Positions 22,781 through 43,027 of a stretch of DNA of 64,000 nt are shown in pieces. Both the position numbers and the translations under genes were made by a program. The stretch lies in IMG/VR virus record IMGVR_UViG_3300045988_179014, positions 160,001 to 224,000 of that record; one strand, written 5' to 3'. The first letter of the stretch is position 1. Each line of letters begins with the position of its first letter. The notes beneath the pieces were generated by a model. The model worked only from the letters and a program-made list of their open reading frames with translations. It was not told the origin of the DNA and did not search any database. Source of the stretch: a virus.

Positions 22781-23035
22781 TTAACCATTCATGTAATACT
22801 GGAAACCAAAATAAATAAGCGCCATCACTATTACTGCAACTACGAGAATTCCCAATACTCTCATAACCGTAAAAGTAACACGAACCTTCTTCTCACTCAC
22901 AGAACTGTTTTTGTATTTTTTGGTAGTTGTTTTGGATTGAGTGTTGGAGGCACGTTTTAGGTCTTCTACTTGACGTACTTCTGGGTCCTTCAGTCGCCCA
23001 GTTTTTCCCGCTTGTAACTCTTCAAATAGCATCAT
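22781..23035 (-). CDS. Small protein with C-terminal TM anchor
   Basis: It has a basic N-terminus and the TM 'VLGILVVAVIVMALIYFGFQYY'. Confidence 0.35.
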   Translation of the reverse strand: MMLFEELQAGKTGRLKDPEVRQVEDLKRASNTQSKTTTKKYKNSSVSEKKVRVTFTVMRVLGILVVAVIVMALIYFGFQYYMNG

Positions 23036-23658
23036 TCACCTTCTTCAACAGCAGGAACCTCATATCTGGACAAAGTAGAACCCAGAACATGGTCTTTGTG
23101 AACAATAAAAGCCTTTCCAGGAACACAAGCCCCAGAAATGCAAGTTACCAAATACTCGTCATTAAGATATGAAGCACGTTTCAGCAATGGAGATTCTATG
23201 CCTTCATTTGGCGGAAAATTTGCATCAACCAATTCTCCATCCACAGTTAAAATACCAGGTGGAGCCCATGTGAGTTTTCCATAAGGACCAGCTACCACAC
23301 TTACAACAGCATAATCCCCACCTGGCACAAAAGCTTGCCTCAAATGGTCCAGAAACCCTTTTTCTTCAGGATTTTTCACATTGACCAGAATTTGGGCTTG
23401 AGCTGGAATCATGCCTCCACTGTAGGTAATGTTTTTGACAGGCACCAAACCCGCTCCTGAGGTGGTGGGGACAACACGAAGCAATGTAGCGGCAAAAACT
23501 GTGTACAACAAAACAACAGCACAAAAAGCGATGAACAGACCTCGCCCTATTTTTTTGAATAGCAAGGAATTATATGCTGACCGAGCCAAACGAACTTGAG
23601 GTTGATGTTTAGGTGTTGAATCTGGTGTTGTTGAAGTACGCCGAAAAACTTCTGCCAT
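23032..23658 (-). CDS. N-terminally anchored extracytoplasmic protein (CpaB/RcpC-like or sortase-like fold possible)
   Basis: The TM is 'LFIAFCAVVLLYTVFAATLL'. A 'YLVTCISGAC' segment recalls the sortase TLxTC motif, but the conserved His context is absent. Confidence 0.3.
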   Translation of the reverse strand: MAEVFRRTSTTPDSTPKHQPQVRLARSAYNSLLFKKIGRGLFIAFCAVVLLYTVFAATLLRVVPTTSGAGLVPVKNITYSGGMIPAQAQILVNVKNPEEKGFLDHLRQAFVPGGDYAVVSVVAGPYGKLTWAPPGILTVDGELVDANFPPNEGIESPLLKRASYLNDEYLVTCISGACVPGKAFIVHKDHVLGSTLSRYEVPAVEEGE

Positions 23659-23694
23659 GGAAAACCTTCCCGCTGAAAACGAATACTGGCAATA

Positions 23695-24267
23695 TCAGAT
23701 GAAAAACAATCCAGAAATAATCATCACAACCGCAAGGACACCCACGATAGTCTTGATTTTATGCGCTTTCATCCAAGTCACAAAATCATTTATCTTGTCT
23801 TTGATGGATTCTTGTGTGAGTGTTGTTTTGTTTTTAGGTGCAATACCGAAATAAGCACGTCGAACATCTTCCAGTTGTTTTGCTAAATGCTGTGACAGTT
23901 CTTTTGTAAGAATTAATTCAACTTTGTCGCCTTGGCTTGATGTGACTTCCAGAATTGGGGGGTCATTCTTCATGAAAATTGGTTTTCTTACATCTCCATT
24001 AGGAGTCCGAAAATTCAGCACTTGCACCATCACAGCACGGTCAGTTTGCTTGAATAATGCCATTACGTCATCTTCATGAACAACTTTGTCGTCCCCGGCA
24101 AGAAACAATTCATCATCATCAAAATAAGAATCTGTTTCAGAGTCTTCATCAATCAAATCATCATCATCCACTTCTTCGATGAAATCTTCTGCATCCCACT
24201 TGGATTGATTCTCAAGGTTGTTAGCAATTACAGAATCGGATTCTTTTATGGTATTTTTATCATTCAT
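23695..24267 (-). CDS. Acidic protein with C-terminal TM anchor
   Basis: It has the acidic stretch 'EEVDDDDLIDEDSETDSYFDDDE' and the C-terminal TM 'IKTIVGVLAVVMIISGLFFI'. Confidence 0.4.
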   Translation of the reverse strand: MNDKNTIKESDSVIANNLENQSKWDAEDFIEEVDDDDLIDEDSETDSYFDDDELFLAGDDKVVHEDDVMALFKQTDRAVMVQVLNFRTPNGDVRKPIFMKNDPPILEVTSSQGDKVELILTKELSQHLAKQLEDVRRAYFGIAPKNKTTLTQESIKDKINDFVTWMKAHKIKTIVGVLAVVMIISGLFFI

Positions 24268-24327
24268 CTGCTAATTCTTTCTCCCGATTTCAACTGTTCC
24301 TATTGTATCGGTTATCATTCATACCTC

Positions 24328-25194
24328 TCAGCTGGGGGAACTGCTAGCACTAGGTGTGGATGTTGCAACTGGAGTATTTGAGGGTGTATCAGATGGGATT
24401 GTAGTGGCCTTAATAGTATCAATCAATTTAAAATCGAACTGAGTATTGGCATAAGCATCCGAATTAGGGGTATACCATGTTGCCAAAAGAAATTGGTTTT
24501 TCAAATCTGTTATGGAGTAAAGTTTCCACTGTCCGTTTCCATCTTTCGCAAAAGTCAAATTCGCAGTATTGTTAGCAAAAGTTTTTTCCATAACATTGAA
24601 GGTTCCATCCCAAGCTGAATCATTAATAGTTTGAATCCGTTGAGTCGCCACTGAAGTAAAATTAACCGTCACAGTAGCAGCTGTGTGTTGTTTGTCTCCA
24701 ATGTTGACATATGAACCAGTTTTTTTAGTTGTGGCAGACACAGAATCAACAGTGTATCCAGTCAAATTTTGCAATTCATTCTGATTAGTCCATTGAGATA
24801 CAGCACGGTCATCGTAAGATAGAGGGGAACCAGCAAAAACATGAGGTTTCAACGCTGCATATGCCGATTCACGTGAAACGAAAAAGTCTTTGGCTTGATT
24901 AGGGTTAGAGCCAATCAAGTATTGAGCATTCATTATGTTGTCCCCAGTTAAAGTGTTGGGACGAACCCCAAAATTTCCAGCGATGGACAATAGCTCTTTT
25001 GCACGACTGGACAACAACACTTGGTCCTGATTATCGATTTCCACCTGTGACGTAATTTCAGGAGTAGTTGGTTCCTCATTCGGGGTTGTCCACCACACAG
25101 CCAGAAGAACAGTAGCAACTGCAACACTCAATACACCCACAATCAAATAAATCAGCCGATTACGTGTGGTTTTTTCATCAGTTTTGTCAGTCAT
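24328..25194 (-). CDS. Bitopic surface protein with Ser/Thr/Pro-rich C-terminus (possible TcpC/VirB8-like)
   Basis: It has the TM 'LIYLIVGVLSVAVATVLLAVWW', a 'GNGQWKLYSI' strand and the tail 'TPSDTPSNTPVATSTPSASSSPS'. Confidence 0.4.
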   Translation of the reverse strand: MTDKTDEKTTRNRLIYLIVGVLSVAVATVLLAVWWTTPNEEPTTPEITSQVEIDNQDQVLLSSRAKELLSIAGNFGVRPNTLTGDNIMNAQYLIGSNPNQAKDFFVSRESAYAALKPHVFAGSPLSYDDRAVSQWTNQNELQNLTGYTVDSVSATTKKTGSYVNIGDKQHTAATVTVNFTSVATQRIQTINDSAWDGTFNVMEKTFANNTANLTFAKDGNGQWKLYSITDLKNQFLLATWYTPNSDAYANTQFDFKLIDTIKATTIPSDTPSNTPVATSTPSASSSPS

Positions 25195-25233
25195 GATTCT
25201 CCATTATTCCATCTTTTGTCATCATTGTTCATA

Positions 25234-26847
25234 TTAACCAATAAAATGGTAACCGTAATAAGCTCGGCCACCAGTATCCACCAAATTCTCGTTCAAGTAG
25301 TTTGCATCACCCAAAGCAGCCACACGAGTCAGATAAGAGGCATGTGCAATAGTGTCACGTCCATTTACATCACCTAAATACAATAGAATGTGACCATTGA
25401 CCCGAGTAACCCAAATGTCACCAGGTTTTGCTTCAGATTTCTTGGTGTATTGTTGCCATTTAGGGCTCTTCGCCAAATAATTTCCTTGTTCAGTCGTAGA
25501 CCCCCAAGGGATATCAGGGTCACGTGTCAAACGAATCACAGTTGCAACAAAACGGTCACATGAAGCATACAAACCGGACCAAGGGTCGGGGCTGGATTTT
25601 TCTTCTGCTTTTTTCTTGCCTTCAAGGTATTCAGGTTTTGCTTTTTGGCGACCTTCTGAATCTCCAGGCCCAACTCGTGATTCAGCTGAAGTTGGATATG
25701 ACATGCTAATAGCTAATTGCACAATGTCTGAGGTATCTAGATTACCACCGCTACTGTTTAAACAACTACCTCCAGTGTTAGCAGTGTATCCACCTCCGCC
25801 CTTGTAATTGGCCAAGAATTTTTCCGCACCAGCATAACGGTTATCCATACGTGGAATGCCAGCACGTTCAAATCGTTGTTCGAAAATCAAAACTAAATCT
25901 TTAGCAGTTTTGGAAGGGTCGTTAAAACCACCTGCAACCAGATTAGCGCCTTCCCATCCTTCCAGCTCAGTTTTGAAAAATTCAAGTTGCACATTGATGT
26001 CTGTCCAGTGCTTTCCTTGTTGTTTAGCAAAATTCGCAAAAGTGGTTCGACGTTCACCATCCCACTGAGCCAGACCAACTGCTTTACCTCCACCAGTAAC
26101 AGCAGCCAACTCCTCATTGGAGACACTAGAACTCATGAAATTGTTTTGCACCAGTTTAGGGTCGACTTGGGATTCTTGTGACCAGTTTCCAATAATACCA
26201 GCCACCTGATTAAGACTCATTGGTTGTCCCCCCAAGAAGTCGAATTTGGTGGTCATCAACCAATTGGCAATAGAGTTCGCGTTGCCAATCCAATCACCTT
26301 TATCTTCTGCTTGGACACCATTTGTACTTCCTGCAACCCCACACCCATCAGCATTTTCATTACGTCCCACAACTTGAAAAGTGGCCATAACGCCAATGAC
26401 CAATGACGCAATAACGTTAATAACCAATACCCCTACCCAAAATATGGGGTCTAAAAGTAAAGGAACCACAACAGTGACAAAAGCTTTAGCAGTGGCTACT
26501 GTTTTCTTGACAATATTTTTAACACTTCGGGTTTTCTCAACTGTTTTCTGGATTGCTTCTTTACCTTCAGGAGAAACAGTATTACCAGCCATGTCGGCAA
26601 CTTTTGTAGCGGCTGCTTGTTTCAACGCTGCTTTAGGGTTCCTGACCGTGTCTTTGACTGATGAATCCTTCAATGAACTAAAAGGTTGGGAATTGCTACG
26701 TTCAACACCAGAGGTAGATACCGCATCTGACTTTTGAGCAGAATTAGCTGCATTCGATTCCTGCATCTTGCTATTTGATGACATATTGGTGTTTTTGCCA
26801 GGAGAAATATTGTTCTCGCTTTCAGGTAATTCGTTTATTTGAGCCAT
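25234..26847 (-). CDS. Bifunctional cell-wall hydrolase, CwlT/TcpG-like (lytic transglycosylase/muramidase plus NlpC/P60 peptidase) with N-terminal TM
   Basis: The TM is 'VTVVVPLLLDPIFWVGVLVINVIASLVIGV'. 'AGIIGNWSQESQ...GLAQW' is a lytic-transglycosylase-type E-S motif. The C-terminal 'YASCDRFVATV...NGHILLYLG...IAHASY' gives a Cys-His-His arrangement of the NlpC/P60 or CHAP type. Confidence 0.65.
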   Translation of the reverse strand: MAQINELPESENNISPGKNTNMSSNSKMQESNAANSAQKSDAVSTSGVERSNSQPFSSLKDSSVKDTVRNPKAALKQAAATKVADMAGNTVSPEGKEAIQKTVEKTRSVKNIVKKTVATAKAFVTVVVPLLLDPIFWVGVLVINVIASLVIGVMATFQVVGRNENADGCGVAGSTNGVQAEDKGDWIGNANSIANWLMTTKFDFLGGQPMSLNQVAGIIGNWSQESQVDPKLVQNNFMSSSVSNEELAAVTGGGKAVGLAQWDGERRTTFANFAKQQGKHWTDINVQLEFFKTELEGWEGANLVAGGFNDPSKTAKDLVLIFEQRFERAGIPRMDNRYAGAEKFLANYKGGGGYTANTGGSCLNSSGGNLDTSDIVQLAISMSYPTSAESRVGPGDSEGRQKAKPEYLEGKKKAEEKSSPDPWSGLYASCDRFVATVIRLTRDPDIPWGSTTEQGNYLAKSPKWQQYTKKSEAKPGDIWVTRVNGHILLYLGDVNGRDTIAHASYLTRVAALGDANYLNENLVDTGGRAYYGYHFIG

Positions 26848-26855
26848 TATCTACC

Positions 26856-29800
26856 TCATTTGGAATCATCAAGTTTGCTTGCACGTTGATACAGTTCAGC
26901 CGCTTTACGACGACGACCTCGGATTTCGGCTTGTAGAGCACGAAGAGCTTTACCTGACAGGTCTGATTGTTTAGCTTCTAGTTGAGCTACTTCGCGTTTC
27001 AGTCGCTCTGATTCTGCATACAATTTTTGTGCCTCATTTAATCCCATGTTTCCTACTTCTTGACGGGGTGTCTCATTGCGTCGTGATTGTTCCAACTGTT
27101 CTGCTTTAGCTGCTTCCCGCTGGACAATCGCTTCACGTATTCTCCGCGCCTTAGCAGCTTGTTCATCCTTATTAGGGGCATGTGGTGATTTGGCCCCATT
27201 AGTTTGAGGTGTTGTGGGAGTAGCAGGAGTAGATGAGGTGGTATCAACTGGAGGCAACGGAATTTCGTCCACATGTTGCTCAAAGAATGAATCCTCTTCT
27301 GGATAATCCACTGGTGGTATGTCTTCATCCCGAGGAGCTGGAGGACGAGGAGTCATTCCACGGTCACGCAAGCTATTCTTTCGCTGCGCTTCATAAGCAT
27401 TGCGTCGATTGGAAGTGTTTGTTCGAGCTGCACGTTCAGATTCACCAGCTACAAAATCAGACTTTGTTGGAGCATCTGGGACAACCACCTGAGTTGGGTT
27501 GAATACTTCACGGTCATCTTCTTTACGTCCTAACCGCGCTTTCTGCTCTTTTTTGGTTTCAAGATTCTGAGCAATCATTTCACGGTTGATTTGCTCTTCC
27601 ACTCTTTGAACTCCACGGTCAGTCAATCCATCACCTGGACGCATATTGATGAACGCATCTCCATACGCCTTGCTCTTGATTGCAGCTTCAGCATGAGCAC
27701 GTTCAGCATCATTGAGCGCCTCCCCAGCATGGACAATCTCCTGTTCCAAACGTCTACGGTCAGCAGCTTGAGTAGCATCAAATGTACGCAACTCTTGCAA
27801 TTCATTTAGAGCAGAGGCATCTAATTTATCCATACCGGCAGCATCGATTTCTTTAGCGAGAATGCTGTCATATTCGTTCTGATAATTGGCCAAACGGTCT
27901 GTGGAAATGCCACTGGCCAATCTGCGAGCACGGTCAGAATACTGGTCTATCTGGTCTTGTAGAATAGCGGCCTTACCCATGTCACCACTATTGATAGCAA
28001 TATTCAGCTGCAACTTGCTGTCAGAGAGCAAATTCTTCAAATCTTGCAGTTGAGCAAAATCTTGCGCCTCATCATAAGCATCATTGACCGCAGAAATACG
28101 TTCAGTTTTCTCTTCCTCTGAGAAGTTTCCATTACGGATGTCACGTAGTTGAGCCACACGGTCAGCATGTGTTTTTTCACGGAAATCATCGAGTATCTGA
28201 TGCTCCATGTTGCGAACACCACGATAGTTTTCCTCAACTTGCTGTAGACGTTGGTTCTTGTCATCAGCTTGTTCATCAAATGATGCCAATGTGTCCTGAG
28301 CATCACGCAAATCAGTTTCACGTTCATCACGAGTTGTAGCAGCTGTGGTTTCCGCAGCGGCAGCATCTTGCATCTTGGCTCGCATATCCTGTTTGTTATC
28401 AACGCTATTACGGTCATACTGACGAGCAATATTGCCAACTAAGCCAGAACTGCGTTTGAGCTGACGTTTGGCGCCATCCTTGAGGCCGGAGATGGACGCA
28501 CGACGCAGCTCGCCCCAACCGCCTTTCTGGAATGGGTTTGCACCAGTTGCCACCATACCGCCAATAGCACCACCGGCACCCGCCAGTGCAAGGTTCTTCC
28601 CAAATGACCCCATATTTTCTGCACGAGAGCGTAATTTGTCCGCCATACTGCTGGACAATTGTTCACCACCCATGTTGACACGACCCACAAGGTTCATCAA
28701 TTCACGTCTGTACATGAACAATGCCATGGTAACAATAACAACGAATAACAGGGTTAGACCCATATTCGACAGATTACCCAAGATGCCACCATAAATAGCA
28801 ATTGCAACCACTAGGAACACTGCTGATGCAAGGTATTTCAAAACCGCTGCAATAACTTTTTCCAACCATCCAAATAGAATTCGTTTACCTCGACCAGGAT
28901 GTACACCTAGTAAGAAGAACAAGGCTCCAAAAGACAACAGAATAAGTGAAGAAATATAATAAATAAGCGCAAATAATGAAACCACGAAAATTATGAACGT
29001 ACCCAATACTGAAACAATAAATGACATACCAGCAACATTGATTTTTCCAATACCGCTGCTGAGGTCATTGCTCCAATGTGTCCACAGGCCTTCATCAGCC
29101 GCAGAAGCCATAATAACGCGATACCATCGAGGGTCGAAATCATTTGTAGTGAAATTGGGGTCCCCATCGGATTGCGCATTAACCGACAAATACATCTGAT
29201 ATGCCATCAAATTGCATACACGGTTTTTGTTGGGTGCATCAAGACTTAACGTGTTTCCTTGGTCATTGACAGAACCACTAGACCCCAAACTGACACAATA
29301 CATGTCAGGATTGAGGTCAGTTTCTTTCAGTTTGGCACGGAATGGACTGTCTGAAGCTTTTGTATCCAGGTCCGCGAAAGATGCCCCAAAACTGGCTTGT
29401 GTATATGGCTCCAGAACAAATGCTTTCCAGATGGAGCATGTGATAGAGTTTGCGGTCAACGACATTTGTTCGTCCAACGTGGCACCAGATGCAGCAGACA
29501 TACAAATCTTATCGGATGTTGACTCTCCTTCATTATAATCAATTTGAGTTGAGGAACCGCCCATACAATTTTGCCCATTGAATGCACCAATAACACATGT
29601 TGACACCGCATTGGACACAGCCATAGGCGCTTTTGCCAACAGAGCCGGATTCAACAAAAGAGCCAATCCAAAAATAACGGAGAGAGTAATCCATAAAGCA
29701 CCAAACAATGCTTCACGGAATTTACGTTTCACCAGTCCTAGATAAGCAACCCAGAATCCTGCTACTGTCACCACAATAACCAGCAAAGGATAGTAGATAC

Positions 29801-30539
29801 TGGATGTTAAAGCTCCAATAATACCGCCATCTGAACGACCAGTGCCACCAATCACTTTGAGTAGATTGAGACAGCTGCCATTTGGATGTGCTGGGTCAGG
29901 ACAAATAATGTTAGGGTTAAAAGCGCTGACGGCAATGAATTGAGCCACGTTGGTTACTAGTCCAGAAAGACTCATTAGCCCATCGGCAACCCATGGAAGA
30001 GCTTGCATGAAACAGTTGGACCAAGCCGACCGTGTTTTCTCCAGCTTTTCAGCATTTTTCTGATAGTACGTGTCAAAACTGGCATTGCCACCATCAAAAG
30101 TTTTCAGTATCCCGTCAGCTACTTCGGGTTTTTTCTTTGATTTGGTCCAGGGGGCGTCTTTGGCTTCGCCTTCACCTTCGTAAGCGACAAATCCTAACCC
30201 GCCACCTAAAGCTTCTTGCATTGTCCAAGTGCGACCACTGCTGTCAGGTTGTACATATCCACCCACTACTGTGTTACGCCAACCATCTTTACGGTCCATT
30301 CCTAAACCTGTTGTATAAATGCATCCAATTTCTGGACTACCTGCTTCAGCAGTATTAATTAAATTGGATTGTTTCTGTGTCAGTACACTACTGGCGAAGG
30401 GTTGTAATGCGAGTACAACAGCGAGCATAGCAAAGACACCAGCAATCAATCCTAGAAAAGGATGACGCTGATTGTGCGACACTTGAGAAGTCGCGAAATT
30501 CTCGTCAATATACGAGGAGCCGTTTGCACGCTTAATCAT
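26856..30539 (-). CDS. Giant polytopic membrane protein, paralog C (candidate VirB6/TcpH-like) with long C-terminal coiled-coil/charged tail
   Basis: The 1227-aa protein has an N-terminal TM, a multi-TM core ('LLVIVVTVAGFWVAYLGL...', 'FIVSVLGTFIIFVVSLFALIYYISSLILLSFGALFFLLGV') and about 550 aa of K/E/R/Q-rich tail. 'CSIWKAFVLEPYTQASFGASF' and 'RWYRVIMASAADEGLWTHWS' align with the C-W-F-W-G block of paralogs A and B. Confidence 0.65.
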   Translation of the reverse strand: MIKRANGSSYIDENFATSQVSHNQRHPFLGLIAGVFAMLAVVLALQPFASSVLTQKQSNLINTAEAGSPEIGCIYTTGLGMDRKDGWRNTVVGGYVQPDSSGRTWTMQEALGGGLGFVAYEGEGEAKDAPWTKSKKKPEVADGILKTFDGGNASFDTYYQKNAEKLEKTRSAWSNCFMQALPWVADGLMSLSGLVTNVAQFIAVSAFNPNIICPDPAHPNGSCLNLLKVIGGTGRSDGGIIGALTSSIYYPLLVIVVTVAGFWVAYLGLVKRKFREALFGALWITLSVIFGLALLLNPALLAKAPMAVSNAVSTCVIGAFNGQNCMGGSSTQIDYNEGESTSDKICMSAASGATLDEQMSLTANSITCSIWKAFVLEPYTQASFGASFADLDTKASDSPFRAKLKETDLNPDMYCVSLGSSGSVNDQGNTLSLDAPNKNRVCNLMAYQMYLSVNAQSDGDPNFTTNDFDPRWYRVIMASAADEGLWTHWSNDLSSGIGKINVAGMSFIVSVLGTFIIFVVSLFALIYYISSLILLSFGALFFLLGVHPGRGKRILFGWLEKVIAAVLKYLASAVFLVVAIAIYGGILGNLSNMGLTLLFVVIVTMALFMYRRELMNLVGRVNMGGEQLSSSMADKLRSRAENMGSFGKNLALAGAGGAIGGMVATGANPFQKGGWGELRRASISGLKDGAKRQLKRSSGLVGNIARQYDRNSVDNKQDMRAKMQDAAAAETTAATTRDERETDLRDAQDTLASFDEQADDKNQRLQQVEENYRGVRNMEHQILDDFREKTHADRVAQLRDIRNGNFSEEEKTERISAVNDAYDEAQDFAQLQDLKNLLSDSKLQLNIAINSGDMGKAAILQDQIDQYSDRARRLASGISTDRLANYQNEYDSILAKEIDAAGMDKLDASALNELQELRTFDATQAADRRRLEQEIVHAGEALNDAERAHAEAAIKSKAYGDAFINMRPGDGLTDRGVQRVEEQINREMIAQNLETKKEQKARLGRKEDDREVFNPTQVVVPDAPTKSDFVAGESERAARTNTSNRRNAYEAQRKNSLRDRGMTPRPPAPRDEDIPPVDYPEEDSFFEQHVDEIPLPPVDTTSSTPATPTTPQTNGAKSPHAPNKDEQAAKARRIREAIVQREAAKAEQLEQSRRNETPRQEVGNMGLNEAQKLYAESERLKREVAQLEAKQSDLSGKALRALQAEIRGRRRKAAELYQRASKLDDSK

Positions 30540-30593: not shown

Positions 30594-30643
30594 ATAAAAA
30601 CGAAACACAGTCAATACTCGCAAGGAAAATATCGACTGTGTTT
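30594..30643 (-). terminator. Intrinsic terminator after phoH-like gene
   Basis: A 10-bp stem AAACACAGTC/GACTGTGTTT is followed on the minus sense by CGTTTTTATG. Confidence 0.5.
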
Positions 30644-30663
30644 CTTAGTTAAGGATAACAGAC

Positions 30664-32130: not shown

Positions 32131-32172
32131 GAAAAAGAGAGGGCAGGATTTTCTAACACCCATCCCTCTCTT
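32131..32172 (-). terminator. Intrinsic terminator after TadE-like gene pair
   Basis: A 9-bp stem AAGAGAGGG/CCCTCTCTT is followed on the minus sense by TTTTCATCC. An A-run precedes it on the plus strand, so it may act in both directions. Confidence 0.45.
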
Positions 32173-32213: not shown

Positions 32214-32816
32214 TTACTTCAAGTCGCTATTGCTTCCGAATGCTACAGCACTAACACTGGATTTATGGGTTTGACAAGCAGGAAGACCAAAAACGCCAAA
32301 AAAGTTTGTTGATGTGGTGTAAACATCTGCTGAAATTACTCTATAAACATTACCGTTCAAAGAATGTTGAGGAATCGCCCCATTTCCTTCAATTGTCCAT
32401 GTACTGGTAACTTGTTTCTTGGCTCCACGTTCCGTTCCTAAAGTCACCACAATATATGGCATTTTTCGTTTCACACCATTGACGACAGCAGTGGAACACG
32501 CTTCCGAATTGTACACTTGAGTTTCCGCTGTGCTACCATCAGGTTTCAGTCCATACTGAGTGCGATACTCTCGTACAAAAGCTGATACGGCCTGATTTCC
32601 CAAACTACCAGTTGAATTCACTGATTTCACACCAGTTTCAACAGCTGTTTGTGCCATGGAAGCATAAGCACGGTCTGCATTCACTGATTTAGCGGTATCA
32701 ACAACAAAACCCATGGTAAGAACAAACAACGGAATAGCCAACAAGAACACCACTAAAACACTGTCACCACGGTCAGAGCGTAATCTAGCTTTCAAACGGT
32801 TCATCATTGTTCTCAC
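32214..32816 (-). CDS. TadE-like (Flp-pilus pseudopilin family) protein 2
   Basis: The N-terminus 'RLKARLRSDRGDSVLVVFLLAIPLFVLTMGFVVD' has the TadE pattern of R-G-S/D, a hydrophobic helix, then V-[DE]-F. It is paralogous to the adjacent gene. Confidence 0.6.
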   Translation of the reverse strand: MRTMMNRLKARLRSDRGDSVLVVFLLAIPLFVLTMGFVVDTAKSVNADRAYASMAQTAVETGVKSVNSTGSLGNQAVSAFVREYRTQYGLKPDGSTAETQVYNSEACSTAVVNGVKRKMPYIVVTLGTERGAKKQVTSTWTIEGNGAIPQHSLNGNVYRVISADVYTTSTNFFGVFGLPACQTHKSSVSAVAFGSNSDLK

Positions 32817-35150: not shown

Positions 35151-35161
35151 TTCAAGACCTC

Positions 35162-36559
35162 TCAGTCAGTTCCAAAAACTAGGTCACCAACATCTGATGA
35201 AAAATTCATGCCAGATGTGGAAAGTACATCCAAGTTGGTAATTTGACTAAACGCTTGAACACGATGAGTATCTCCAGGCATTTGCTCCAAAAACAGTTGA
35301 GCTTGGTCTCCAGCAGTCCATTGAAGCAGAATCCCTAAATCATCATAACTTTGCTTCAATTTGGAACAGTATTCTCGCAGTGTTTCTTCTGTAGGGGCTT
35401 CAACAACGATTCGGTAAGAACCTTCCACCCATGGGGTTTTATCAGCTGCAAGCATCTCCGACAGCCTGTGAATGTCATCCAACGCTTGGGCCACATCAGC
35501 TGGGAAACTATCAACGGCAGAATCCAAAGAGTTCTGTGCTGCTGAAATGTTTTCCAATTCGTCTTTCTGCTCTTTCTTCTTCTTTTCCAATTCCAGTTTC
35601 ATTTTCTGGTTTGGATGTAATGTGAATCGGGAGTAACAGGTAAATGGAGCGCCTAAACGCGAAGGAAAATACAGGAAGGGAATACCCGCAGGATAATAAA
35701 TGTCTTTGGGGAATTTGGCGAAACTCAAAGTAGCACGATAACCTGACACTTCAACATCATCAAACATCTGAGTAATTTTCAACCAACGGTACTTGTTCTC
35801 AATGGCCGAACCCACTTCAAGGTCAATATCTCCAGGGCCAATCCGGTTTTCGTGGTCAACATCAAGATATGGTGCAGGCATGGCAGGGTAGAATTGCCGT
35901 TTTATTAACAGTAGAATTTCTTCGGATGTGACTCGTTGTGCTTTGAGATGACCAATTGACAAAATACGGAAAAGCTCTTCTTCCTTTTTCCGTGCATCAT
36001 TTTCTTCTTGTGCTGACACTGCTTCAGTAGGTGTCTGAATTATTGTGTCCATCCATGTTTTGAGGGTTTCCATAGCGCCCTTGAAGCCGCTTTCGAAAAC
36101 ATTCAATCCAGCCATGTTCAAAGCGCCACGTTTACCTAAATTAACGCCCAGGAAAGTCATTTTCTTCATATATTGACGGTTTTTCAGATACATGATTTGC
36201 TCTTCAACGTATCGTTCAAAACCAGGACCTGTTTTCCAATCTTTTGAAACTTCTTTTATCTGTTCAGCCCAGGCGTCAACATCTACTGGTGCTGATGTGA
36301 TAATGAGCTGGCATTCGATTGGTTCTTGTTTTTCTGTCATGAGGTTGTTGAAAGCATTGGAAATTCTCATGGCCAAAGCAACTTTTTGCTCAGATGACAG
36401 AAAATCATAAACATTGTTGCTCAACTGGTAATAAGCATAACTATCAGTTTGACTGAATACAATATTGTCAATTACTGCAACAGCTGAAATACCTAACCTT
36501 TTACGATTGTTGGACGACTTGTTCTTTTTGTTTTTCTCGGTCGTCTTTGTGGTTGCCAT
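35162..36559 (-). CDS. Hypothetical cytoplasmic protein of transfer module
   Basis: 465 aa with a basic N-terminus. No recognised motif. Confidence 0.45.
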   Translation of the reverse strand: MATTKTTEKNKKNKSSNNRKRLGISAVAVIDNIVFSQTDSYAYYQLSNNVYDFLSSEQKVALAMRISNAFNNLMTEKQEPIECQLIITSAPVDVDAWAEQIKEVSKDWKTGPGFERYVEEQIMYLKNRQYMKKMTFLGVNLGKRGALNMAGLNVFESGFKGAMETLKTWMDTIIQTPTEAVSAQEENDARKKEEELFRILSIGHLKAQRVTSEEILLLIKRQFYPAMPAPYLDVDHENRIGPGDIDLEVGSAIENKYRWLKITQMFDDVEVSGYRATLSFAKFPKDIYYPAGIPFLYFPSRLGAPFTCYSRFTLHPNQKMKLELEKKKKEQKDELENISAAQNSLDSAVDSFPADVAQALDDIHRLSEMLAADKTPWVEGSYRIVVEAPTEETLREYCSKLKQSYDDLGILLQWTAGDQAQLFLEQMPGDTHRVQAFSQITNLDVLSTSGMNFSSDVGDLVFGTD

Positions 36560-36644: not shown

Positions 36645-36682
36645 ATACAACAAAAGAGGCAGGTTTAACACCTGCCTCTTTT
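36645..36682 (-). terminator. Strong intrinsic terminator immediately after small membrane-protein gene
   Basis: A 13-bp stem AAAAGAGGCAGGT/ACCTGCCTCTTTT with a 5-nt loop is followed on the minus sense by TTTTGTTGT. Confidence 0.55.
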
Positions 36683-36710
36683 GCCCTTCTCCAGTGGTCA
36701 GTAGGAAAAA

Positions 36711-37070
36711 TCAATCGGAGAAGTTGTTAGGTAGTTCTGCAAAAGATACTCCAGGTACAGTAACAAGATTTGCACTATTCACCATGTTGATGTCTTTAGC
36801 AGCATTCTTAGCAACGCCAGTCAAACCAGAATCCTTGTTACCAAAGATTTCAGAACCAGCGAAGATTAGAACACCAACCACAGCCGCAATACCAACGAAT
36901 GCCAACAATTTCATCCAAGCACGGTCTTTAAGGAAAAAAATAGCAAAGATAGCAACTGCTGCCAAATAGATAGGGGTGAGCCAGCCTTTAAGGACATTGT
37001 TCCACAAGTCAACAAGACCCGCAGCTGGAATCTCAATTGTCATTTGTTGTAAAGTGTTGAAAATTTCCAT
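36711..37070 (-). CDS. Small two-helix membrane protein (candidate pilin / VirB2-VirB3-like T4SS subunit)
   Basis: The 119-aa protein has two hydrophobic helices, 'WLTPIYLAAVAIFAIFFL' and 'LLAFVGIAAVVGVLIFAGSEIF'. Its gene is followed by a strong terminator, as is typical of highly expressed pilin genes. Confidence 0.4.
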   Translation of the reverse strand: MEIFNTLQQMTIEIPAAGLVDLWNNVLKGWLTPIYLAAVAIFAIFFLKDRAWMKLLAFVGIAAVVGVLIFAGSEIFGNKDSGLTGVAKNAAKDINMVNSANLVTVPGVSFAELPNNFSD

Positions 37071-37183
37071 TGTTCCTGCTCCATGTAGAAGGTTTATTTA
37101 AATCAGATGCAACATCTTTTCTAATTGTTGTAAACTCAATTCTGTTTGCAATATCGAAATGATTGCTGTTTAAACAAAACAAT

Positions 37184-38923
37184 TTATCGTGGCGAACTTG
37201 ATGAACTGGGTTTGCTTTCAGATGATGGTTCTGATGATGTTGCTTCCCCTTCTTTGGCTACATAAAATTGTGGAGAGAATTTGGATACCAAGTATTTTCC
37301 ATTTGCTTGTTTAACCAGTGTCATCACATATGTGGATGTGTATTCCAAACGTGCTGCGGAATCTGCTGTTCCCAATGAAGTACGCCAATTTACACGTACA
37401 CTAACTTTGACCATACTTGGGTCATTAGTTGGATATGCTTCATATTTGACTGCATCATTCATGTCCCCAGCAAATGTGTACGTACCATTTAAACCTTTGA
37501 GCAGTTCAACTGGTGGATTAGTGACAACATATTGGTCTAAAGTCGTATGATTAGATGGAGAGGATTTGGCATAACCCTCCAAGAATCCATAAACCACGGA
37601 TTGCAATGATTTGGCCAATGCTTGGTCAGATTCTCCCGTCCCTAATGGAGCTGAAGAGGGAATTTCAGAACTTTGACCCACTTCTGCTGCTGGAACCACT
37701 GTTGGGGAATCCTTGGTGATGGAGAAATTCCCGGACCCAGCATTGTAGTAAACATTCACATTGAAGAATTGCCAACGAGGTTGTGTACCCGCAGGAGTGT
37801 CGCCAGCCGCCAAAGCAGGCTGTACAAGAGCCCCAATGGTGTACCGAGCTGAATAATCAGTCAATGCTTTAGACTCGTACACTGTAGGGCCGTATAGAAT
37901 AGTTTGTTGGAAACCTTTTGCAGCAGTTCTGTTCTCATTGTCCCCGTTACCCATGGTGCCACTGTAGTAATACCCCAATACCTGTTGAGACACAGAATCC
38001 GAATTAACCGTGAGATAAGCCTTCATGAAATCGGTTGCAAATCCACGACCTGACTCCAAAGGAAAGTTAGTCAAACCAGTGGTATCTTTCACTATTTCCT
38101 GTATTTCAGCTGGAGTAACGGAATCTGCTGGGAAGAATGTTTTATAACCACCAAAACCAACAACAAGAAGAATCGCCCCAACAAAAATCGACTGCATTAT
38201 TTTACGGTTTTTCTGAAGATTCTTTCTGGGGTCCAAGTCGTGTTCTTTAATTTTTCGACCACCAAAAGGTTTCAGTTGTTTCTTCTTCTTGTCAATGAAA
38301 ACATTTTGACTATTATCGTCTTTTTCATTCTCATTGGTTGTTTTATTGGAAGCAGTTTTAGATGCACGTTTACCAAACAATTTCTTTTTAGTTGGTTGGG
38401 GTTCTTCCTCTGACAGGTCATCATCCAATGATTCAGATTCCAACATGTCATCATCTTCTGGCAGAACCGTTGAAACTGTGATAGGTTTTTGAGCTTCCCG
38501 AGCACGTCTTTGTTGTCTAGCGAATCGGCTTTGACGTGCTTGTTCAGCAGCTTCCTCTTCTTCCCATTCCAATTGCTCCTCAACAGACATGTCAACAAAA
38601 GTATCGTCTTCAGGCCCATCATAAGAATTAGCAACTGGAGGGCGTTGTGAGGACCATTTCAATCGTTCATATGCCATTCCGCGTTCATCAAAATCATACT
38701 GGTCAACATGAGTAGGGCGCCCTAATGCGATGTCAGGATTTTGTGTATTATTGGATTTATTGTTTGTGGGCATTCCCTGAATAGGAGGTAAACTCGCCTC
38801 ATCATCCATGGACGTTCTTGAGGATGGTTGTACAGGCATTCTGTTACCAGTAGCACGACTCATTGGACTGGTTCGCTGGTTTCTCCCTGGTACATTGTTT
38901 GGAAGTGGCATCAATAGCTCCAA
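37184..38923 (-). CDS. Bitopic protein with disordered acidic N-terminal half and C-terminal ectodomain (possible VirB8/TcpC-like)
   Basis: The central TM is 'IMQSIFVGAILLVVGFGGYKTFF'. The ectodomain of about 330 aa ends in 'ANGKYLVSKFSPQFYV'. Confidence 0.45.
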   Translation of the reverse strand: MELLMPLPNNVPGRNQRTSPMSRATGNRMPVQPSSRTSMDDEASLPPIQGMPTNNKSNNTQNPDIALGRPTHVDQYDFDERGMAYERLKWSSQRPPVANSYDGPEDDTFVDMSVEEQLEWEEEEAAEQARQSRFARQQRRAREAQKPITVSTVLPEDDDMLESESLDDDLSEEEPQPTKKKLFGKRASKTASNKTTNENEKDDNSQNVFIDKKKKQLKPFGGRKIKEHDLDPRKNLQKNRKIMQSIFVGAILLVVGFGGYKTFFPADSVTPAEIQEIVKDTTGLTNFPLESGRGFATDFMKAYLTVNSDSVSQQVLGYYYSGTMGNGDNENRTAAKGFQQTILYGPTVYESKALTDYSARYTIGALVQPALAAGDTPAGTQPRWQFFNVNVYYNAGSGNFSITKDSPTVVPAAEVGQSSEIPSSAPLGTGESDQALAKSLQSVVYGFLEGYAKSSPSNHTTLDQYVVTNPPVELLKGLNGTYTFAGDMNDAVKYEAYPTNDPSMVKVSVRVNWRTSLGTADSAARLEYTSTYVMTLVKQANGKYLVSKFSPQFYVAKEGEATSSEPSSESKPSSSSSPR

Positions 38924-38976
38924 TTGCTTGGTTTATTAGGCTAATGGCAATATCAATACCTAATACCAGCAAAACA

Positions 38977-41391
38977 TCACATCAAATCATGCAAATCGGG
39001 CAATGCCTCTTCCTCATCTTCCTGCACTGGAATTGATTTAACAGAATGCGAATCAGGTCGCGTCTGACGTATTTCAGGTTTGTAGTTCGAATCATTGAAC
39101 AATGCTTTAAAACTACTTGTTTCCAATGCTGACCTAGATGTACGTGATGAAGCATTGGTCATATTCTTTGCGGTTTGAGAAGAACGAACAACAGGTAATG
39201 GTTTGTCAACAGGTATTGAAAGAACGTCCCGCATATCCGGGTCTAGCTCATCATCCAACGATTCAAAACCAAACCCGCCATCTTCATCTTCTTCTGACAT
39301 CTGGATTGTGTCATATTCATTCATTGAACTGTTACCAGTATATAATGCCGCCAGAGGATGTTCGCTTTCTTCAGAAGATAACATATTCTGTTGTTCCGGA
39401 CCTGGCAACGTGTTCAATGCTGAATCTGTTTTCTCCAATGAAACAGAAACGGTATCTGACTCATCATGACCAATGGAATCAAATTTTGGTTCATAATAGT
39501 TCGCAATGACTTTATCATCCGGAATCATCCAAACTTTCCGTACCAATGCCCCACCTTCATGATTCCGATATCGTGGGTCATCTGGTGATTTGTTGATGAC
39601 AATAGCTGTAGCGCGATAATTGTTTGTTGAGGTTGGAGCACTCAAATTCATGAAAGCCTGAGTGGGCACAATCCAACGTTCCTCTTCACGTGATTGAACA
39701 GTTTGGTTACGACGATTACGCCAATTGCTTGAAAAGAGGAATGTACGATTGTTGTTGGCTTGACTGTAAACAGTGACCATATGTTTCCCAGAAATTTTGG
39801 ACAGTCTGGTAGCCGAATCCTCTGTCGCTCCGCTGTGAACGATAAAGTTGGAACATGTATCCATGATTCCCAACAAATATGCTTCCCCATTGTGTTCAGC
39901 AGCCGCAATTATTTGTTCAAAAGATTGTGAAGACAAAGTCATGGCAATTTTTGATTCACGAGACTTTTCCAACAATGAGGTAACTGCTGTTGGTGGTACT
40001 GCTTGAAACTCATCAATATATACGTTTACTTGGTTTCTGTCTCCAGCATTTCTTCTTCGTGCGGATACAGCATTGAGGTCAGCGAGGATGAGCGACCCCA
40101 TGTAACGCGAGAAGTCTTTTTCCGAGTCAGCATTCAAGGAGAACAGAATCACATTACCCGGCTCTTTCGTCAATTGGTACAAATCAATGGTTCGCGACCC
40201 TTTGGCAGGACGTAACCAACGACCATATTCAGAAGCCATCAATGTGCGCATCTGTCCTTGTAGCGCCCCAAGCTGGCGAGTCAAATCATCAGTACGGTTA
40301 CGAGTTTTCAAAGCAAGATATTCAGCATCTTCTTGAATGTCCGTCCCCTCACATGCTCCTGCCAATTCATCCAAGTTCCCATTGACAGCAGAAGCAATTT
40401 GACAGATGTGTCCATGGTTCCAGTCAATTGATTTGGTTTTGGAACGGTCAGCCAGTCTTAACATGGAAAAAAGAATCTGAAGAATCTGTCTCATATAGCT
40501 TTTGTAGACAGCTGCGGCATTGTCATATTCACGCATGCCCAAAACCATGTCAGCTTTACCAGCACCCCCACTAATCAAAGGGTCATATGTTGCTTGACCT
40601 GGCGATTTAGGAACATCATAACTACCAGGTTCACCATTGACGAAATGATAAAAATTGCATCCATACTCATGAGCCCAAGCAGCAGTTTTGGAAGCCAACT
40701 CAGGAGACCGTTTGAAATCCACAATCACCACTGGCATTTGATTTTTGATGTCATTCAAAATCATTGACAACATGGTAATTGTTTTTCCTGAACCAGCTGA
40801 CCCACTGATAAGAGTTTGTTTCACTGCTTCGGACATATAACGGTAAACGACAGTATCGTTGTCTTCATTCAGTCCTAATGGAGCTTTCTCCTCACTGGCA
40901 AAACTGCCATCCTTCAATTTTTGAATATTCTTGTTACGTTTGAACAATTCAAAAGGTGTTCTGCGATACCGGAAATTATACAACCAACTTCCCTGCAATT
41001 TGAGTTTGTGAGGATTGTTTTTTATCTGTTGAACTTGTACAAAACTGAGAACAAAACCAAATGGACCTGCCAACATGAGATTCACAAGCAACATGGCTGG
41101 AATCATTTCTGTCCAAGTTTCCATAATAGTGGATAGATTATTGAATACTGACAGAAAACGATTCAAGGCATTGGTAGAGGCCCAGACAATCGCCAATACA
41201 ATTTCATATATGAGGATGATTGTAGTGATAACTGATAACTTTTGACGCCCCCACCGTAGCAACAAATAAAAACTGTAACCTACTACAACAGCTGGTAAAA
41301 AAATGATACCAAGCAGGACTAGCAAACCCCATTCGTTGCCGTCCCCGTCCTTGTCATCTTTTTTCTCTTGCTCTGGCCCCAAAAGTAACAC
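38977..41391 (-). CDS. T4SS-type ATPase of the VirD4/TraG coupling-protein or VirB4 family (FtsK-HerA superfamily)
   Basis: The GTG start lies behind GGAGG. Two N-terminal TM helices are present. It has the Walker A 'ISGSAGSGKTITM' and Walker B 'VNVYIDEFQAV'. The long acidic C-terminal tail 'EEDEDGGFGFESLDDELDPD...EDEEEALPDL' is typical of coupling proteins. Confidence 0.65.
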   Translation of the reverse strand: MLLLGPEQEKKDDKDGDGNEWGLLVLLGIIFLPAVVVGYSFYLLLRWGRQKLSVITTIILIYEIVLAIVWASTNALNRFLSVFNNLSTIMETWTEMIPAMLLVNLMLAGPFGFVLSFVQVQQIKNNPHKLKLQGSWLYNFRYRRTPFELFKRNKNIQKLKDGSFASEEKAPLGLNEDNDTVVYRYMSEAVKQTLISGSAGSGKTITMLSMILNDIKNQMPVVIVDFKRSPELASKTAAWAHEYGCNFYHFVNGEPGSYDVPKSPGQATYDPLISGGAGKADMVLGMREYDNAAAVYKSYMRQILQILFSMLRLADRSKTKSIDWNHGHICQIASAVNGNLDELAGACEGTDIQEDAEYLALKTRNRTDDLTRQLGALQGQMRTLMASEYGRWLRPAKGSRTIDLYQLTKEPGNVILFSLNADSEKDFSRYMGSLILADLNAVSARRRNAGDRNQVNVYIDEFQAVPPTAVTSLLEKSRESKIAMTLSSQSFEQIIAAAEHNGEAYLLGIMDTCSNFIVHSGATEDSATRLSKISGKHMVTVYSQANNNRTFLFSSNWRNRRNQTVQSREEERWIVPTQAFMNLSAPTSTNNYRATAIVINKSPDDPRYRNHEGGALVRKVWMIPDDKVIANYYEPKFDSIGHDESDTVSVSLEKTDSALNTLPGPEQQNMLSSEESEHPLAALYTGNSSMNEYDTIQMSEEDEDGGFGFESLDDELDPDMRDVLSIPVDKPLPVVRSSQTAKNMTNASSRTSRSALETSSFKALFNDSNYKPEIRQTRPDSHSVKSIPVQEDEEEALPDLHDLM

Positions 41392-41410
41392 TATCGTTTC
41401 CTCCGTTGTT

Positions 41411-43027
41411 TCATTCCTGGTCAGTTTCCATTACACCAAGAGGGTCAAAATTAAACTTCTCAACCAGTGCAGCATACAAAGGGGTTTCTTGAACAGGAAT
41501 GATGGATGGTACCAAGAATGCTTTGTCCACCTCGATTTTCTCGTCTTCACGTGGGTCATGGAAAGCTTGATTCACCACATCATTGATACCAGCCAGCTTG
41601 TATTCAACACGCTGCACCAATTCCTGTACGTGGTCTCCTGGCATGGGAGCAATGGCATGATTCAATTCTGTAAGAACGGTTCGACGTTTTTCATTGAGTA
41701 TGTAACGTTCCTTTTCCAAAGACTCCAAATCAAAGAAACAATCCGTTGAATCATCACGAGTAGCATCCAATTCAGTACTCACTGTGATTGGTTGACCTTC
41801 AATGGTTTGGATACCTTGTTCCAATGCCAAATACTGATAATCGCCCAAAGCTTTGTTGTAACACGACTGAGACGCTGAAACTGCACGTTCCACTGCTTTA
41901 ACTTGAAGTTCCAAATCATCATTTTGTCTCGATATGTCAACAATATTAGTAATTCGTTCATTGGGTACATTCGCTGTTGACAATTGTTTTTCCAAATCAT
42001 GTGTCAAAGTGGTGTCATCCAATGCTCCAGTCATTCCCTCATGTGGATTGGACATGACTTCGTAATCAAATCCACCATCGTCTGAAATGTTGAATCCAGA
42101 CTCATCAGCTTTCTTGGATGGGCAAGAATAGTCCCAGTCATCATCATTTGGAAGGATTGAACTGTTGTTGGTTTTAAGAAGTCTCATATCCAATGCCTCA
42201 ACATTTTCAGGTTTGACTGCATTTTCCGAAATTGCTGGCAACGCTTCTTCATCGTGCTCTGGTAATCCTTCAATATGGACATACCCCATAGTTACCAAAT
42301 GTTTCAATGAACGAAGAACATCCACCCACAAGAAACCATATGCACAAGATTTCTTCCGTAATGTTTTCAATGTTTCTTCATGTTGTGACACATTCAAAAT
42401 CAAAGATTCTGCGCCATTTTGGGGTTTGGTTTCGACCAGTTGTGATAATTTGGCCTCATCCGCAATTCCATCAATGATTTCACTAGCTACTTTCTCATCT
42501 TTGGGGAGTTGCTCAATCAAGCGAAACAAGTTTAAAGGAGACTCTTCCAGAAAATCCATACTGAAGATTATTCTCTTATCCATGCCTCGTAGGAGTAACG
42601 TCTGAACCTGTTTTATATTGTATTGATTAGCTTTTTTGAATGACTGAACTGTATGGTCTCTCAAAACCGAATCTACTACAGGTATGGCAACTGGTATTTG
42701 ATGTAGAATGTTGTTGTATGATGTTAGCGGTTTGTCGGGATTGTAAAGTTGTTTCACTTTGACTGGGGTGTCTTCAGGAAGTGATGACTCTAAGCTTATA
42801 CGTTCATTCAAAGGGGGAGTGGTTTCGGACAAGGATGCGAACATGATGTTTCCATTACTGGCCCAGATTTTCAGTGTTGAGCCATTGTCCAAAGAAACTT
42901 CCAACAAACATTCGTTTTGATGGATGTCACTCAATGAATTCAGAATAACAGATTGCAAATTGAGATTATGAACATCTTTGTTGTTTTTTACGCGCTTACG
43001 TCTAAAAAATCCCATAAAATGGTCCAT
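41411..43027 (-). CDS. Hypothetical protein
   Basis: 538 aa, no motif recognised. Confidence 0.45.
   Translation of the reverse strand: MDHFMGFFRRKRVKNNKDVHNLNLQSVILNSLSDIHQNECLLEVSLDNGSTLKIWASNGNIMFASLSETTPPLNERISLESSLPEDTPVKVKQLYNPDKPLTSYNNILHQIPVAIPVVDSVLRDHTVQSFKKANQYNIKQVQTLLLRGMDKRIIFSMDFLEESPLNLFRLIEQLPKDEKVASEIIDGIADEAKLSQLVETKPQNGAESLILNVSQHEETLKTLRKKSCAYGFLWVDVLRSLKHLVTMGYVHIEGLPEHDEEALPAISENAVKPENVEALDMRLLKTNNSSILPNDDDWDYSCPSKKADESGFNISDDGGFDYEVMSNPHEGMTGALDDTTLTHDLEKQLSTANVPNERITNIVDISRQNDDLELQVKAVERAVSASQSCYNKALGDYQYLALEQGIQTIEGQPITVSTELDATRDDSTDCFFDLESLEKERYILNEKRRTVLTELNHAIAPMPGDHVQELVQRVEYKLAGINDVVNQAFHDPREDEKIEVDKAFLVPSIIPVQETPLYAALVEKFNFDPLGVMETDQE

Follow-up and report, generated by a model that had tools for sequence, protein, structure and literature searches.

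A conserved Tcp-type locus with VirB4 reduced to its N-terminal domain: a candidate DNA-transfer apparatus of a probable giant plasmid-like element

VirB4 is the signature protein by which all type IV secretion and conjugation systems are detected and classified. Its ATPase is considered indispensable and has, to our knowledge, been present in every such system so far; we know of no studied type IV secretion system (T4SS) that works without it. The locus described here, in which only the N-terminal domain of VirB4 is found, occupies positions 22781-43027 of a 64-kb stretch of DNA (positions 160,001 to 224,000 of IMG/VR record IMGVR_UViG_3300045988_179014), which is referred to as the window. 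Near-identical copies are present on contigs of 337-347 kb from several samples, and the window is therefore part of an element of about 344 kb. The sequence read covers the window and both flanks, ~131 kb or 38% of the element. We consider it probable, at roughly 60%, that the block encodes an apparatus for DNA transfer which spans the envelope, and that the element is a giant, plasmid-like and extrachromosomal one, Inocle-like in kind, from a Gram-positive host.

The closest described systems are the Tcp/MPF_FA loci of Gram-positive bacteria, which include the Tcp locus of pCW3, ICEBs1 and the pLS20-type plasmids. In MPF_FA, the two VirB3-like proteins TcpD and TcpE are encoded upstream of virB4 and an extended VirB6 subfamily is found, whereas a VirB11-like ATPase is said to be universally lacking in Gram-positive systems (2025 review, PMC12857230). 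Like these loci, the block encodes a coupling protein and a TcpC/VirB8-like protein, has the gene of a TcpD-like small membrane protein immediately before that of VirB4, and includes extended VirB6 proteins as well as a bifunctional wall hydrolase; the local gene order is shared, its first genes following the order TcpC, TcpD, VirB4, with VirB6 and the hydrolase further downstream. It differs from them in having the N-terminal domain of VirB4 only, three VirB6 paralogs of 1035-1339 aa, and TadE-like proteins, a surface nuclease and a PIN-PhoH protein within the operon; no TcpE and no relaxase were recognised in the block, and the module lies in the core of a 344-kb replicon, adjoining DnaG. 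An earlier first-pass annotation of this DNA had concluded that the component mix matches no nameable system. On the contrary, the shared order, the TcpD-like match and the hydrolase C-terminus, taken together, place the block in the Tcp/ICEBs1/pLS20 class, so that it appears to be a variant of a Tcp-type T4SS rather than an unnameable composite. The annotation was right in recognising a monoderm T4SS-like DNA-transfer set among replication, sigma-factor and nucleotide-metabolism genes and a co-directional block of ~20 kb, in which 16 contiguous open reading frames (ORFs), all on the minus strand, take up 96% of the sequence. It overlooked three genes, those of the VirB4 N-terminal domain, the NikA-like protein and the PIN-PhoH protein.

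The 465-aa VirB4-like protein aligns with model positions 8-428 of the 813 positions of the NCBIfam family ATPase_TcpF (VirB4) at an E-value of 1e-17, and with positions 232-423 of PHROG 24614 (815 positions). By tblastn, it corresponds to the first ~430 residues of 'ATP-binding proteins' of 827-846 aa that are encoded in conjugation loci on plasmids of Nocardiopsis and Bacillus. When a profile of 35 family members was compared with the 827-aa VirB4 of the Nocardiopsis plasmid, the alignment covered residues 8-426 (hhalign probability 99.9%, E 3e-36) and ended just before the P-loop of the latter; no Walker A motif or P-loop is present in the 465-aa protein itself. Its AlphaFold model (pLDDT 72) was searched against PDB with Foldseek, where the top 14 matches were all to TrwK/VirB4 of R388 (E ~1e-11) and nothing else was found below E = 1. 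In the inner-membrane complex of the R388 Trw system (PDB 7O41, 8RTD), the N-terminal domain of VirB4 binds VirB3 and VirB8, and the VirB11 hexamer docks under VirB4. R388 is however a diderm system, which has an outer-membrane core and in which VirB4 is a full-length motor, whereas the protein studied here is predicted to have the TrwK/VirB4 N-terminal fold, the scaffold half only.

The same shortened form is seen throughout the closest relatives, as the best 120 homologs found among 5.8 billion proteins are all 448-489 aa long. When the C-terminal ATPase halves of two VirB4 proteins encoded on plasmids were used as tblastn queries, no match was obtained in the window, in the ~131 kb of the element or in ~55 related loci, whereas the N-terminal half, used in the same way, detects every locus. 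The VirB4 N-terminal domain is among the best-conserved genes of the family (48-75% identity) and this, together with the same synteny in ~25 loci, argues for function rather than decay. A VirB4 without its motor half across the closest family orthologs would, as judged from these sequences, be a new feature, at odds with the view that the VirB4 ATPase is always present. The first-pass annotation had regarded the absence of any VirB4 as an outcome that would speak against its proposal; a VirB4 is indeed present, but only as the N-terminal scaffold domain. A 463-aa gene in a divergent lineage (L093; L-numbers are labels of loci from family members or stretches of the element) was also considered as a VirB4 N-terminal domain, and was rejected on comparison.

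Sequence and structure comparisons establish both the parts list and its conservation. The same gene order was observed in ~25 independent metagenomic loci (GC 33-61%, contigs of 300-830 kb), and the block is therefore not a chance assemblage. This order runs from rIIA-like, ThyX, RNase T, NrdH, DnaG, an unknown protein, the coupling protein and TcpC to the TcpD-like protein, the VirB4 N-terminal domain, the nuclease, the NikA-like protein, the two TadE-like proteins, PhoH and VirB6. In four IMG/VR relatives (L105, L106, L108 and L111) the onward order is also the same, with a sigma factor, SbcC, the VirB11-like ATPase, HU, GNAT and two VirB6 paralogs. The coupling protein has more than 120 relatives, known from metagenomes only, which are 40-59% identical to it and lie on contigs of 300-830 kb, and the GC content of the family loci as a whole ranges over 25-61%. 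No family member was found in 185,579 GTDB species genomes (one genome for each species), for which reason the idea that contigs of 680-830 kb come from small-genome, Patescibacteria-like bacteria was rejected, and the block has no nucleotide match in GenBank phages or PLSDB plasmids. The best PLSDB match of the coupling protein, a 437-kb plasmid of Streptomyces anulatus, was considered as a cultured relative and rejected, as similarity in this ordinary large plasmid is confined to the coupling protein and TcpC.

The 804-aa ATPase is a VirD4-type coupling protein, as indicated by matches to Pfam TraG-D_C (8e-10) and TrwB_AAD_bind (4e-8) and to NCBIfam SXT_TraD (6e-21). It has a Walker A motif (GSAGSGKT) in the ATPase domain, three hydrophobic segments at the N-terminus and an acidic, disordered tail of 168 aa with 36 Asp and Glu residues against 12 Lys and Arg. 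The previous description as a VirD4/VirB4-family ATPase with two transmembrane (TM) helices and an acidic tail thus holds for the VirD4 type and the tail, although not for the helix count. The best matches of its AlphaFold model (pLDDT 76.5) are Cag-beta/VirD4, TrwB (TM-score 0.70) and DotL, VirB4 C-terminal domains enter the match list only at rank 40, and its profile aligns only marginally with the VirB4 ATPase domain. We also considered whether this protein could be the relocated VirB4 motor, which was ruled out by the profile and fold comparisons, VirD4/TrwB being closer. Inteins are frequent in the family and are carried by some of its coupling proteins; several orthologs of the coupling protein reach 1050-1400 aa, and LAGLIDADG or Hom_end domains are seen in part of these.

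The neighbouring bitopic protein, already noticed for its ectodomain, passes the Pfam cut-off for TcpC (29.3 bits against 27; E 9.7e-7). It consists of a long disordered cytoplasmic N-terminus, a single TM helix at residues 242-260 and the TcpC ectodomain, which we read as a scaffold that spans the wall, and its gene is conserved in 34 loci. The 119-aa protein that follows had been taken for a pilin-like protein with its own terminator. Two TM helices and a hairpin are indeed present; the family is however TcpD/VirB3-like rather than pilin-like, since it matches a 96-aa ORF situated between the TcpC-like and TcpE genes of the Bacillus plasmid p536 (hhalign probability 94.5%, E 8e-8). It shows no match to TcpE itself. 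The hairpin downstream of its gene resembles a terminator or attenuator.

Three giant polytopic proteins, one in the block and two elsewhere in the window, had been proposed to be VirB6-like paralogs, and this is borne out. The protein encoded at 3510-6617 passes the Pfam cut-off for TrbL (7.5e-7), and blastp connects the three with one another at 1e-20 to 1e-29; the protein of the block stays below the threshold for Pfam TrbL/VirB6 (0.003), and its paralogy with the other two is detected at 1e-20 to 1e-24. The latter are kept as a pair in relatives. Adjoining the pair is a 186-aa protein (window 1236-1796) with five predicted TM helices and no family match, whose candidacy as a prepilin peptidase is unsupported.

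The secretion ATPase encoded at 14052..15296, which the first-pass annotation assigned to the CpaF/VirB11 family and which belongs to Pfam T2SSE (Table 1), matches NCBIfam VirB11 (3e-38), TIGR03819 (1e-37) and TrbB (7e-33), all below the respective cut-offs. TIGR03819, the 'TadA family conjugal transfer-associated ATPase', belongs to an actinobacterial 'helicase/secretion neighbourhood', which resembles the present case in that a TadA-like ATPase occurs in a locus with a presumed role in conjugal transfer, and which we take to include TadE-like genes. Unlike in that neighbourhood, no DEAH helicase, CpaE-like or TadB/C genes adjoin the ATPase here, and the score is 130 bits against a cut-off of 373. 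The ATPase keeps the same neighbours in relatives, with orthologs at 45-61% identity. In the divergent lineage L093/L110 its gene lies directly upstream of that of the coupling protein, and a functional link between the two is therefore suggested. A conserved VirB11-like ATPase beside a Gram-positive-type system would appear to be another new feature, which runs counter to the stated lack of such ATPases in Gram-positive systems. Many orthologs of this ATPase are split by an intein at the P-loop.

The wall hydrolase, equivalent to VirB1, has a lysozyme domain of the phi29 gp13 type (Pfam, Table 1; PDB 3csq, 4e-4). Neither Pfam nor PDB gave a match for its last 160 aa; these share 60% identity with the C-terminal end of a hydrolase in the conjugation operon of Macrococcoides canis pB8. 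In that operon, which is of the pLS20 type, the hydrolase gene follows VirB4, and VirD4, a VirB6-like protein and a MobP2 relaxase are also encoded. Out of the original reading as a CwlT/TcpG-like hydrolase with SLT and NlpC/P60 domains, the wall hydrolase is retained and SLT gives way to Phage_lysozyme2; NlpC/P60 for the C-terminal domain was a motif-level guess, unconfirmed by Pfam and PDB.

Table 1. Features of the block, of the rest of the window and of the flanks, with their coordinates (window positions unless a locus label is given).
Feature	Position	Strand	Basis or remark
Acidic protein, 538 aa	41411..43027	minus	directly upstream of the coupling-protein gene
VirD4-type coupling protein (T4CP), 804 aa	38977..41391	minus	Pfam, NCBIfam, AlphaFold2 model
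TcpC/VirB8-like bitopic protein, 579 aa	37184..38923	minus	Pfam TcpC
TcpD/VirB3-like small protein, 119 aa, two TM helices	36711..37070	minus	hhalign
Perfect inverted repeat, 14-bp stem, 5-nt loop	36651..36683	minus	just downstream of the 36711-37070 gene
VirB4/TcpF N-terminal domain only, 465 aa, soluble	35162..36559	minus	NCBIfam, hhalign, Foldseek
Membrane-anchored GmrSD_C/HNH nuclease, 272 aa	34332..35150	minus	Pfam GmrSD_C 9e-8
NikA/MbpA-like ribbon-helix-helix relaxosome accessory protein, 286 aa	33431..34291	minus	Pfam NikA-like
TadE-like protein 1, 185 aa	32813..33370	minus	Pfam TadE 6.6e-9
TadE-like protein 2, 200 aa, paralog of protein 1	32214..32816	minus	shared N-terminal motif
PIN-PhoH ATPase, 468 aa	30664..32070	minus	Pfam PhoH 8e-44, PIN_4 4e-14
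Giant extended VirB6-like polytopic protein, 1227 aa, 615-aa cytoplasmic tail	26856..30539	minus	paralogy, TM map
VirB1-equivalent cell-wall hydrolase, 537 aa	25234..26847	minus	Pfam Phage_lysozyme2 1e-26
Four small single-TM proteins, 288, 190, 208 and 84 aa	22781..25194	minus	TM predictions; close operon
VirB11/TrbB/TadA-like secretion ATPase	14052..15296	minus	Pfam T2SSE 2e-26
Two giant VirB6-like paralogs, 1339 and 1035 aa	3510..10551 (6532-10551, 3510-6617)	minus	Pfam, blastp
Envelope-enzyme loci	L128 15733-16287, L128 18881-19984, L129 11330-12442		

At the level of the whole replicon, the nearest counterparts are two recently described groups of giant elements. Inocles (Kiguchi et al. 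2025, PMC12340149) are cell-associated elements of oral Streptococcus that resemble plasmids; they are circular and measure ~350 kb, with closed circles of ~245-395 kb, an origin/terminus strand switch, no bacterial marker genes and a 16-fold enrichment in the cell fraction, and they reportedly occur in 74% of people but disappear in liquid culture. Their genes include those for gyrase, exonuclease, Pol III, a RecD-like helicase, RpoS, NrdH, a bifunctional transglycosylase, an S26 signal peptidase, VirB4 and VirD4, while no T4SS anatomy, truncated VirB4, VirB11-like ATPase or TadE-like genes are described (PMC12340149). As compared with this published description, the present element is alike in its size of ~350 kb, its occurrence in metagenomes only and its replichore-like gene orientation, and also in having a class A penicillin-binding protein (PBP), S26, a RecD/PIF1-like helicase, Pol III parts, gyrase B, an exonuclease, a sigma factor, NrdH, VirB4 and VirD4. 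The Hodor megaplasmids of the human gut (PMC12934698) are similar in being ~350 kb long, in having been filed among huge phages at first, in their predicted Bacillota hosts and in encoding VirB4, VirD4, a hard-to-recognise VirB6 and Phage_lysozyme2 domains. They are however defined by Rep_3, ParA/ParB/ParM, a MOBH-like relaxase, a Sec operon, sortases and proteins of 7300 aa, at a GC content of 44.6-47.1%, and their description makes no mention of DnaG/DnaB/sigma-type content (PMC12934698). By this description, the defining Hodor genes are unseen in the ~131 kb of our element.

In the mechanism that we propose, the NikA-like protein and a nickase would mark the DNA of the element, the coupling protein would receive it, and the hydrolase would open the peptidoglycan for a channel formed by the VirB6 paralogs, TcpC and TcpD. 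The ATPase-less VirB4 may act as a scaffold only, by analogy with the R388 domain that binds VirB3 and VirB8, and the energy may come from the coupling protein and the VirB11/TadA-like ATPase, the latter replacing the lost VirB4 motor. The two TadE-like proteins would be membrane-anchored surface or adhesion modules rather than a Tad filament, and the surface nuclease and PIN-PhoH would be conserved accessories. A bolder proposal, which is possible but which we advance only tentatively, is that these loci represent a previously undescribed class of monoderm T4SS, with a scaffold-only VirB4 and with energy from the VirB11/TadA-like ATPase and the coupling protein, that moves Inocle-like elements of 300-830 kb between Gram-positive hosts. 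The significance of such a class would lie in the fact that a large and diversified family, clearly subject to purifying selection, keeps only the N-terminal scaffold half of VirB4. If confirmed, it would open to direct test both the division between structural and enzymatic functions in VirB4 and the possible substitution of one secretion ATPase for another, and would explain the spread of giant elements. The 465-aa VirB4 protein and the coupling protein can also serve as marker genes for detecting such elements in metagenomes.

Several observations weigh against a transfer apparatus of an Inocle-like element. Since we know of no T4SS studied so far that functions in the absence of the VirB4 ATPase, a system whose VirB4 lacks the motor may be unable to support transfer; the motor half may also lie in the remaining 62% of the element. 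No relaxase domain was found in the proteins scanned across ~131 kb, nor an oriT, which was looked for through hairpins only, and transfer of the element by the block is therefore what we infer from the other components. Relatives are filed as viral in IMG/VR, the element carries genes that by their sequence are rIIA-like and for RNA ligase, and a relative has an apparent rIIB-like gene. In comparison with the Inocle taxa, GC is 41% instead of 24-32%, and InoC (~454 aa, PF13814) and sortase were not seen in ~131 kb, where no search with the InoC sequence was made. Conjugating 300-830 kb across a Gram-positive wall would also be demanding, and conjugation is read here from sequences and predicted structures.

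With these points in mind, the block may instead be an exapted T4SS remnant that no longer transfers the element and has some other role in the envelope, for example in taking up or releasing DNA, in contact-dependent interaction or in remodelling of the surface. A VirB4 without ATPase and the missing relaxase would fit such a remnant, and the conserved nuclease and TadE-like proteins within the operon, of which the former is predicted to face outward, recall the membrane nuclease and pseudopilin-like proteins of competence systems. The element also has many cell-wall genes (PBP, S26 peptidase, NlpC/P60+G5). Nevertheless, we regard exaptation as unlikely, as VirD4-type coupling and NikA-like relaxosome proteins, which are hallmarks of DNA export, are both conserved and the genes are arranged as in conjugation loci.

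That the element is a huge phage with a T4SS-like module, used for example in genome delivery, superinfection control or lysogenic conversion, is in our view quite improbable. Several family members are recorded in IMG/VR, the genes are strongly co-oriented, and PhoH, ThyX, T4-type RNA ligases, homing endonucleases and inteins are present, as is an rIIA-like protein in the conserved core (window 49667-52165; PHROG 612, 6e-40; HATPase_c_3), while a gene with a Phage_T4_rIIB domain was found in a relative (L004 1-1629). However, Pfam and PHROGs gave no capsid, portal, terminase or tail match in the 38% of the genome read, and neither the coupling protein nor the VirB4 N-terminal domain has a relative in 50,697 GenBank phage records. 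The replisome is of the bacterial type and is accompanied by cell-wall genes, and the element matches in kind the Inocles, which are enriched in the cell fraction. Given that no virion genes are visible, the rIIA- and rIIB-like genes were unexpected.

A Tad (Flp) pilus built by the CpaF-like ATPase and the TadE-like proteins for transfer or adhesion, as the first-pass annotation proposed, is highly improbable, since beyond the TadE N-terminal module (a Pfam TadE domain) and a secretion ATPase that scores on VirB11/TrbB as well as on TIGR03819 and lies 17 kb from the TadE-like genes, no Flp pilin, T2SSF (TadB/TadC) platform or A24 prepilin peptidase was found among the window proteins scanned with Pfam or the ten scanned with NCBIfam, and an alignment of the TadE-like N-termini shows no Glu at position +5 of prepilin-type signals.

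Returning to the proposed transfer apparatus, its accessory genes are conserved. The surface HNH nuclease of the first-pass annotation was confirmed as a GmrSD_C/HNH protein with a TM helix at residues 12-30 after a basic N-terminus, and is syntenic in 26 loci. The NikA-like protein scores above the Pfam cut-off (7e-8), matches NCBIfam MbpA (9e-6) and finds relatives by phmmer down to 1e-110. Both TadE-like proteins had likewise been recognised before; assigned here from a Pfam domain for the first and through paralogy for the second, they share a conserved N-terminal SDRGDSxLVS motif followed by a TM helix, and the first has a Cys-containing ectodomain. In relatives, the second has large variable C-terminal extensions with Flg_new repeats (a 581-aa Flg_new form in L002), and its ORFs in L002, L034, L035 and L046 span 1.8-2.5 kb (~600-820 aa); such extensions fit a membrane-anchored surface protein. 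The Tad component of the block is a minor one. The PIN-PhoH gene is flanked by hairpins (32135-32172 and 30595-30651), is syntenic in 23 loci and is kept within the module in every family member.

At the two ends of the block, similarity to known families is lost. The acidic protein upstream of the coupling protein has no Pfam or PHROG match and no relaxase signature; homologs occupy the same position in 14 family loci with a mean column identity of 25%, and the protein evolves fast. The four small proteins that close the operon have no Pfam match, and homologs at the same position were found in L106 for the 190-, 208- and 84-aa proteins, with none detected for the 288-aa protein.

In the window as a whole, every long ORF is on the minus strand, GC is ~0.41, GC skew is negative throughout and no tRNA genes were found. 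The proposed sigma factors could be upheld for 20792-21697 (Sigma70_r2) only, as 12958-14055 and 19083-20357 have no Pfam match even at E = 1. Conservation of the latter two proteins across the family is nevertheless strong, and the gene at 12958-14055 shares 4 nt with that of the VirB11-like ATPase. In IMG/VR, the window's own element is recorded under UViG_3300045988_187329, in which the ATPase is 100% identical; this contig was covered for 74.8 of its 188.9 kb, to a point 57 kb beyond the window, whereas the upstream side of the element was not found in IMG/VR. These 57 kb encode T4-type RNA ligases, a VWA/MoxR pair, RecA, DnaB, a sliding clamp, a Clp ATPase, RecG, the ribonucleotide reductase NrdE, Pol III delta, a PIF1/RecD-like helicase, SpoU, an SbcD-like phosphoesterase and an SNF2 helicase (L129 16599-19568), the last of which carries an intein. 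The envelope enzymes of the element, namely a class A PBP with a PASTA domain (L126 16517-18886), an S26 signal peptidase, a three-PASTA protein and an NlpC/P60+G5 hydrolase, suggest remodelling of the host wall. On the other flank, upstream of the window end, an NAD-salvage cluster (L007 1174-4978) consisting of NAPRTase, a nicotinamidase-like isochorismatase and NUDIX-NrtR adjoins genes for a dNMP kinase and a 5'-nucleotidase. Treble-clef zinc fingers of the DUF4379 family occur as a single-domain copy in the window (61039-61680) and as five repeats in a 633-aa protein (L128 13125-15023).

A few further observations concern the wider family. A single JGI metagenome (Ga0308157; among loci L024-L064) holds five different family members of 475-727 kb, and another sample one of 828 kb. 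The largest phage genome known in 2020 reportedly measured 735 kb, a size that the largest family contigs exceed if they are single replicons. IMGVR_UViG_3300012642_000011 (437,576 bp; L090/L092, L106/L107) is a mirror-image duplicate in which the coupling-protein and ATPase loci occur twice, symmetrically and on opposite strands; its true length is therefore ~219 kb, the duplication probably being an assembly artefact. Finally, a low-GC group (L053-L061, GC 25-30%) shares the coupling protein at 30-35% identity. Three of its loci (L057, L058 and L061) also have the TcpC and TcpD-like genes, followed by a strand switch, and the GC content of the group fits the described Inocle-delta and -alpha taxa.

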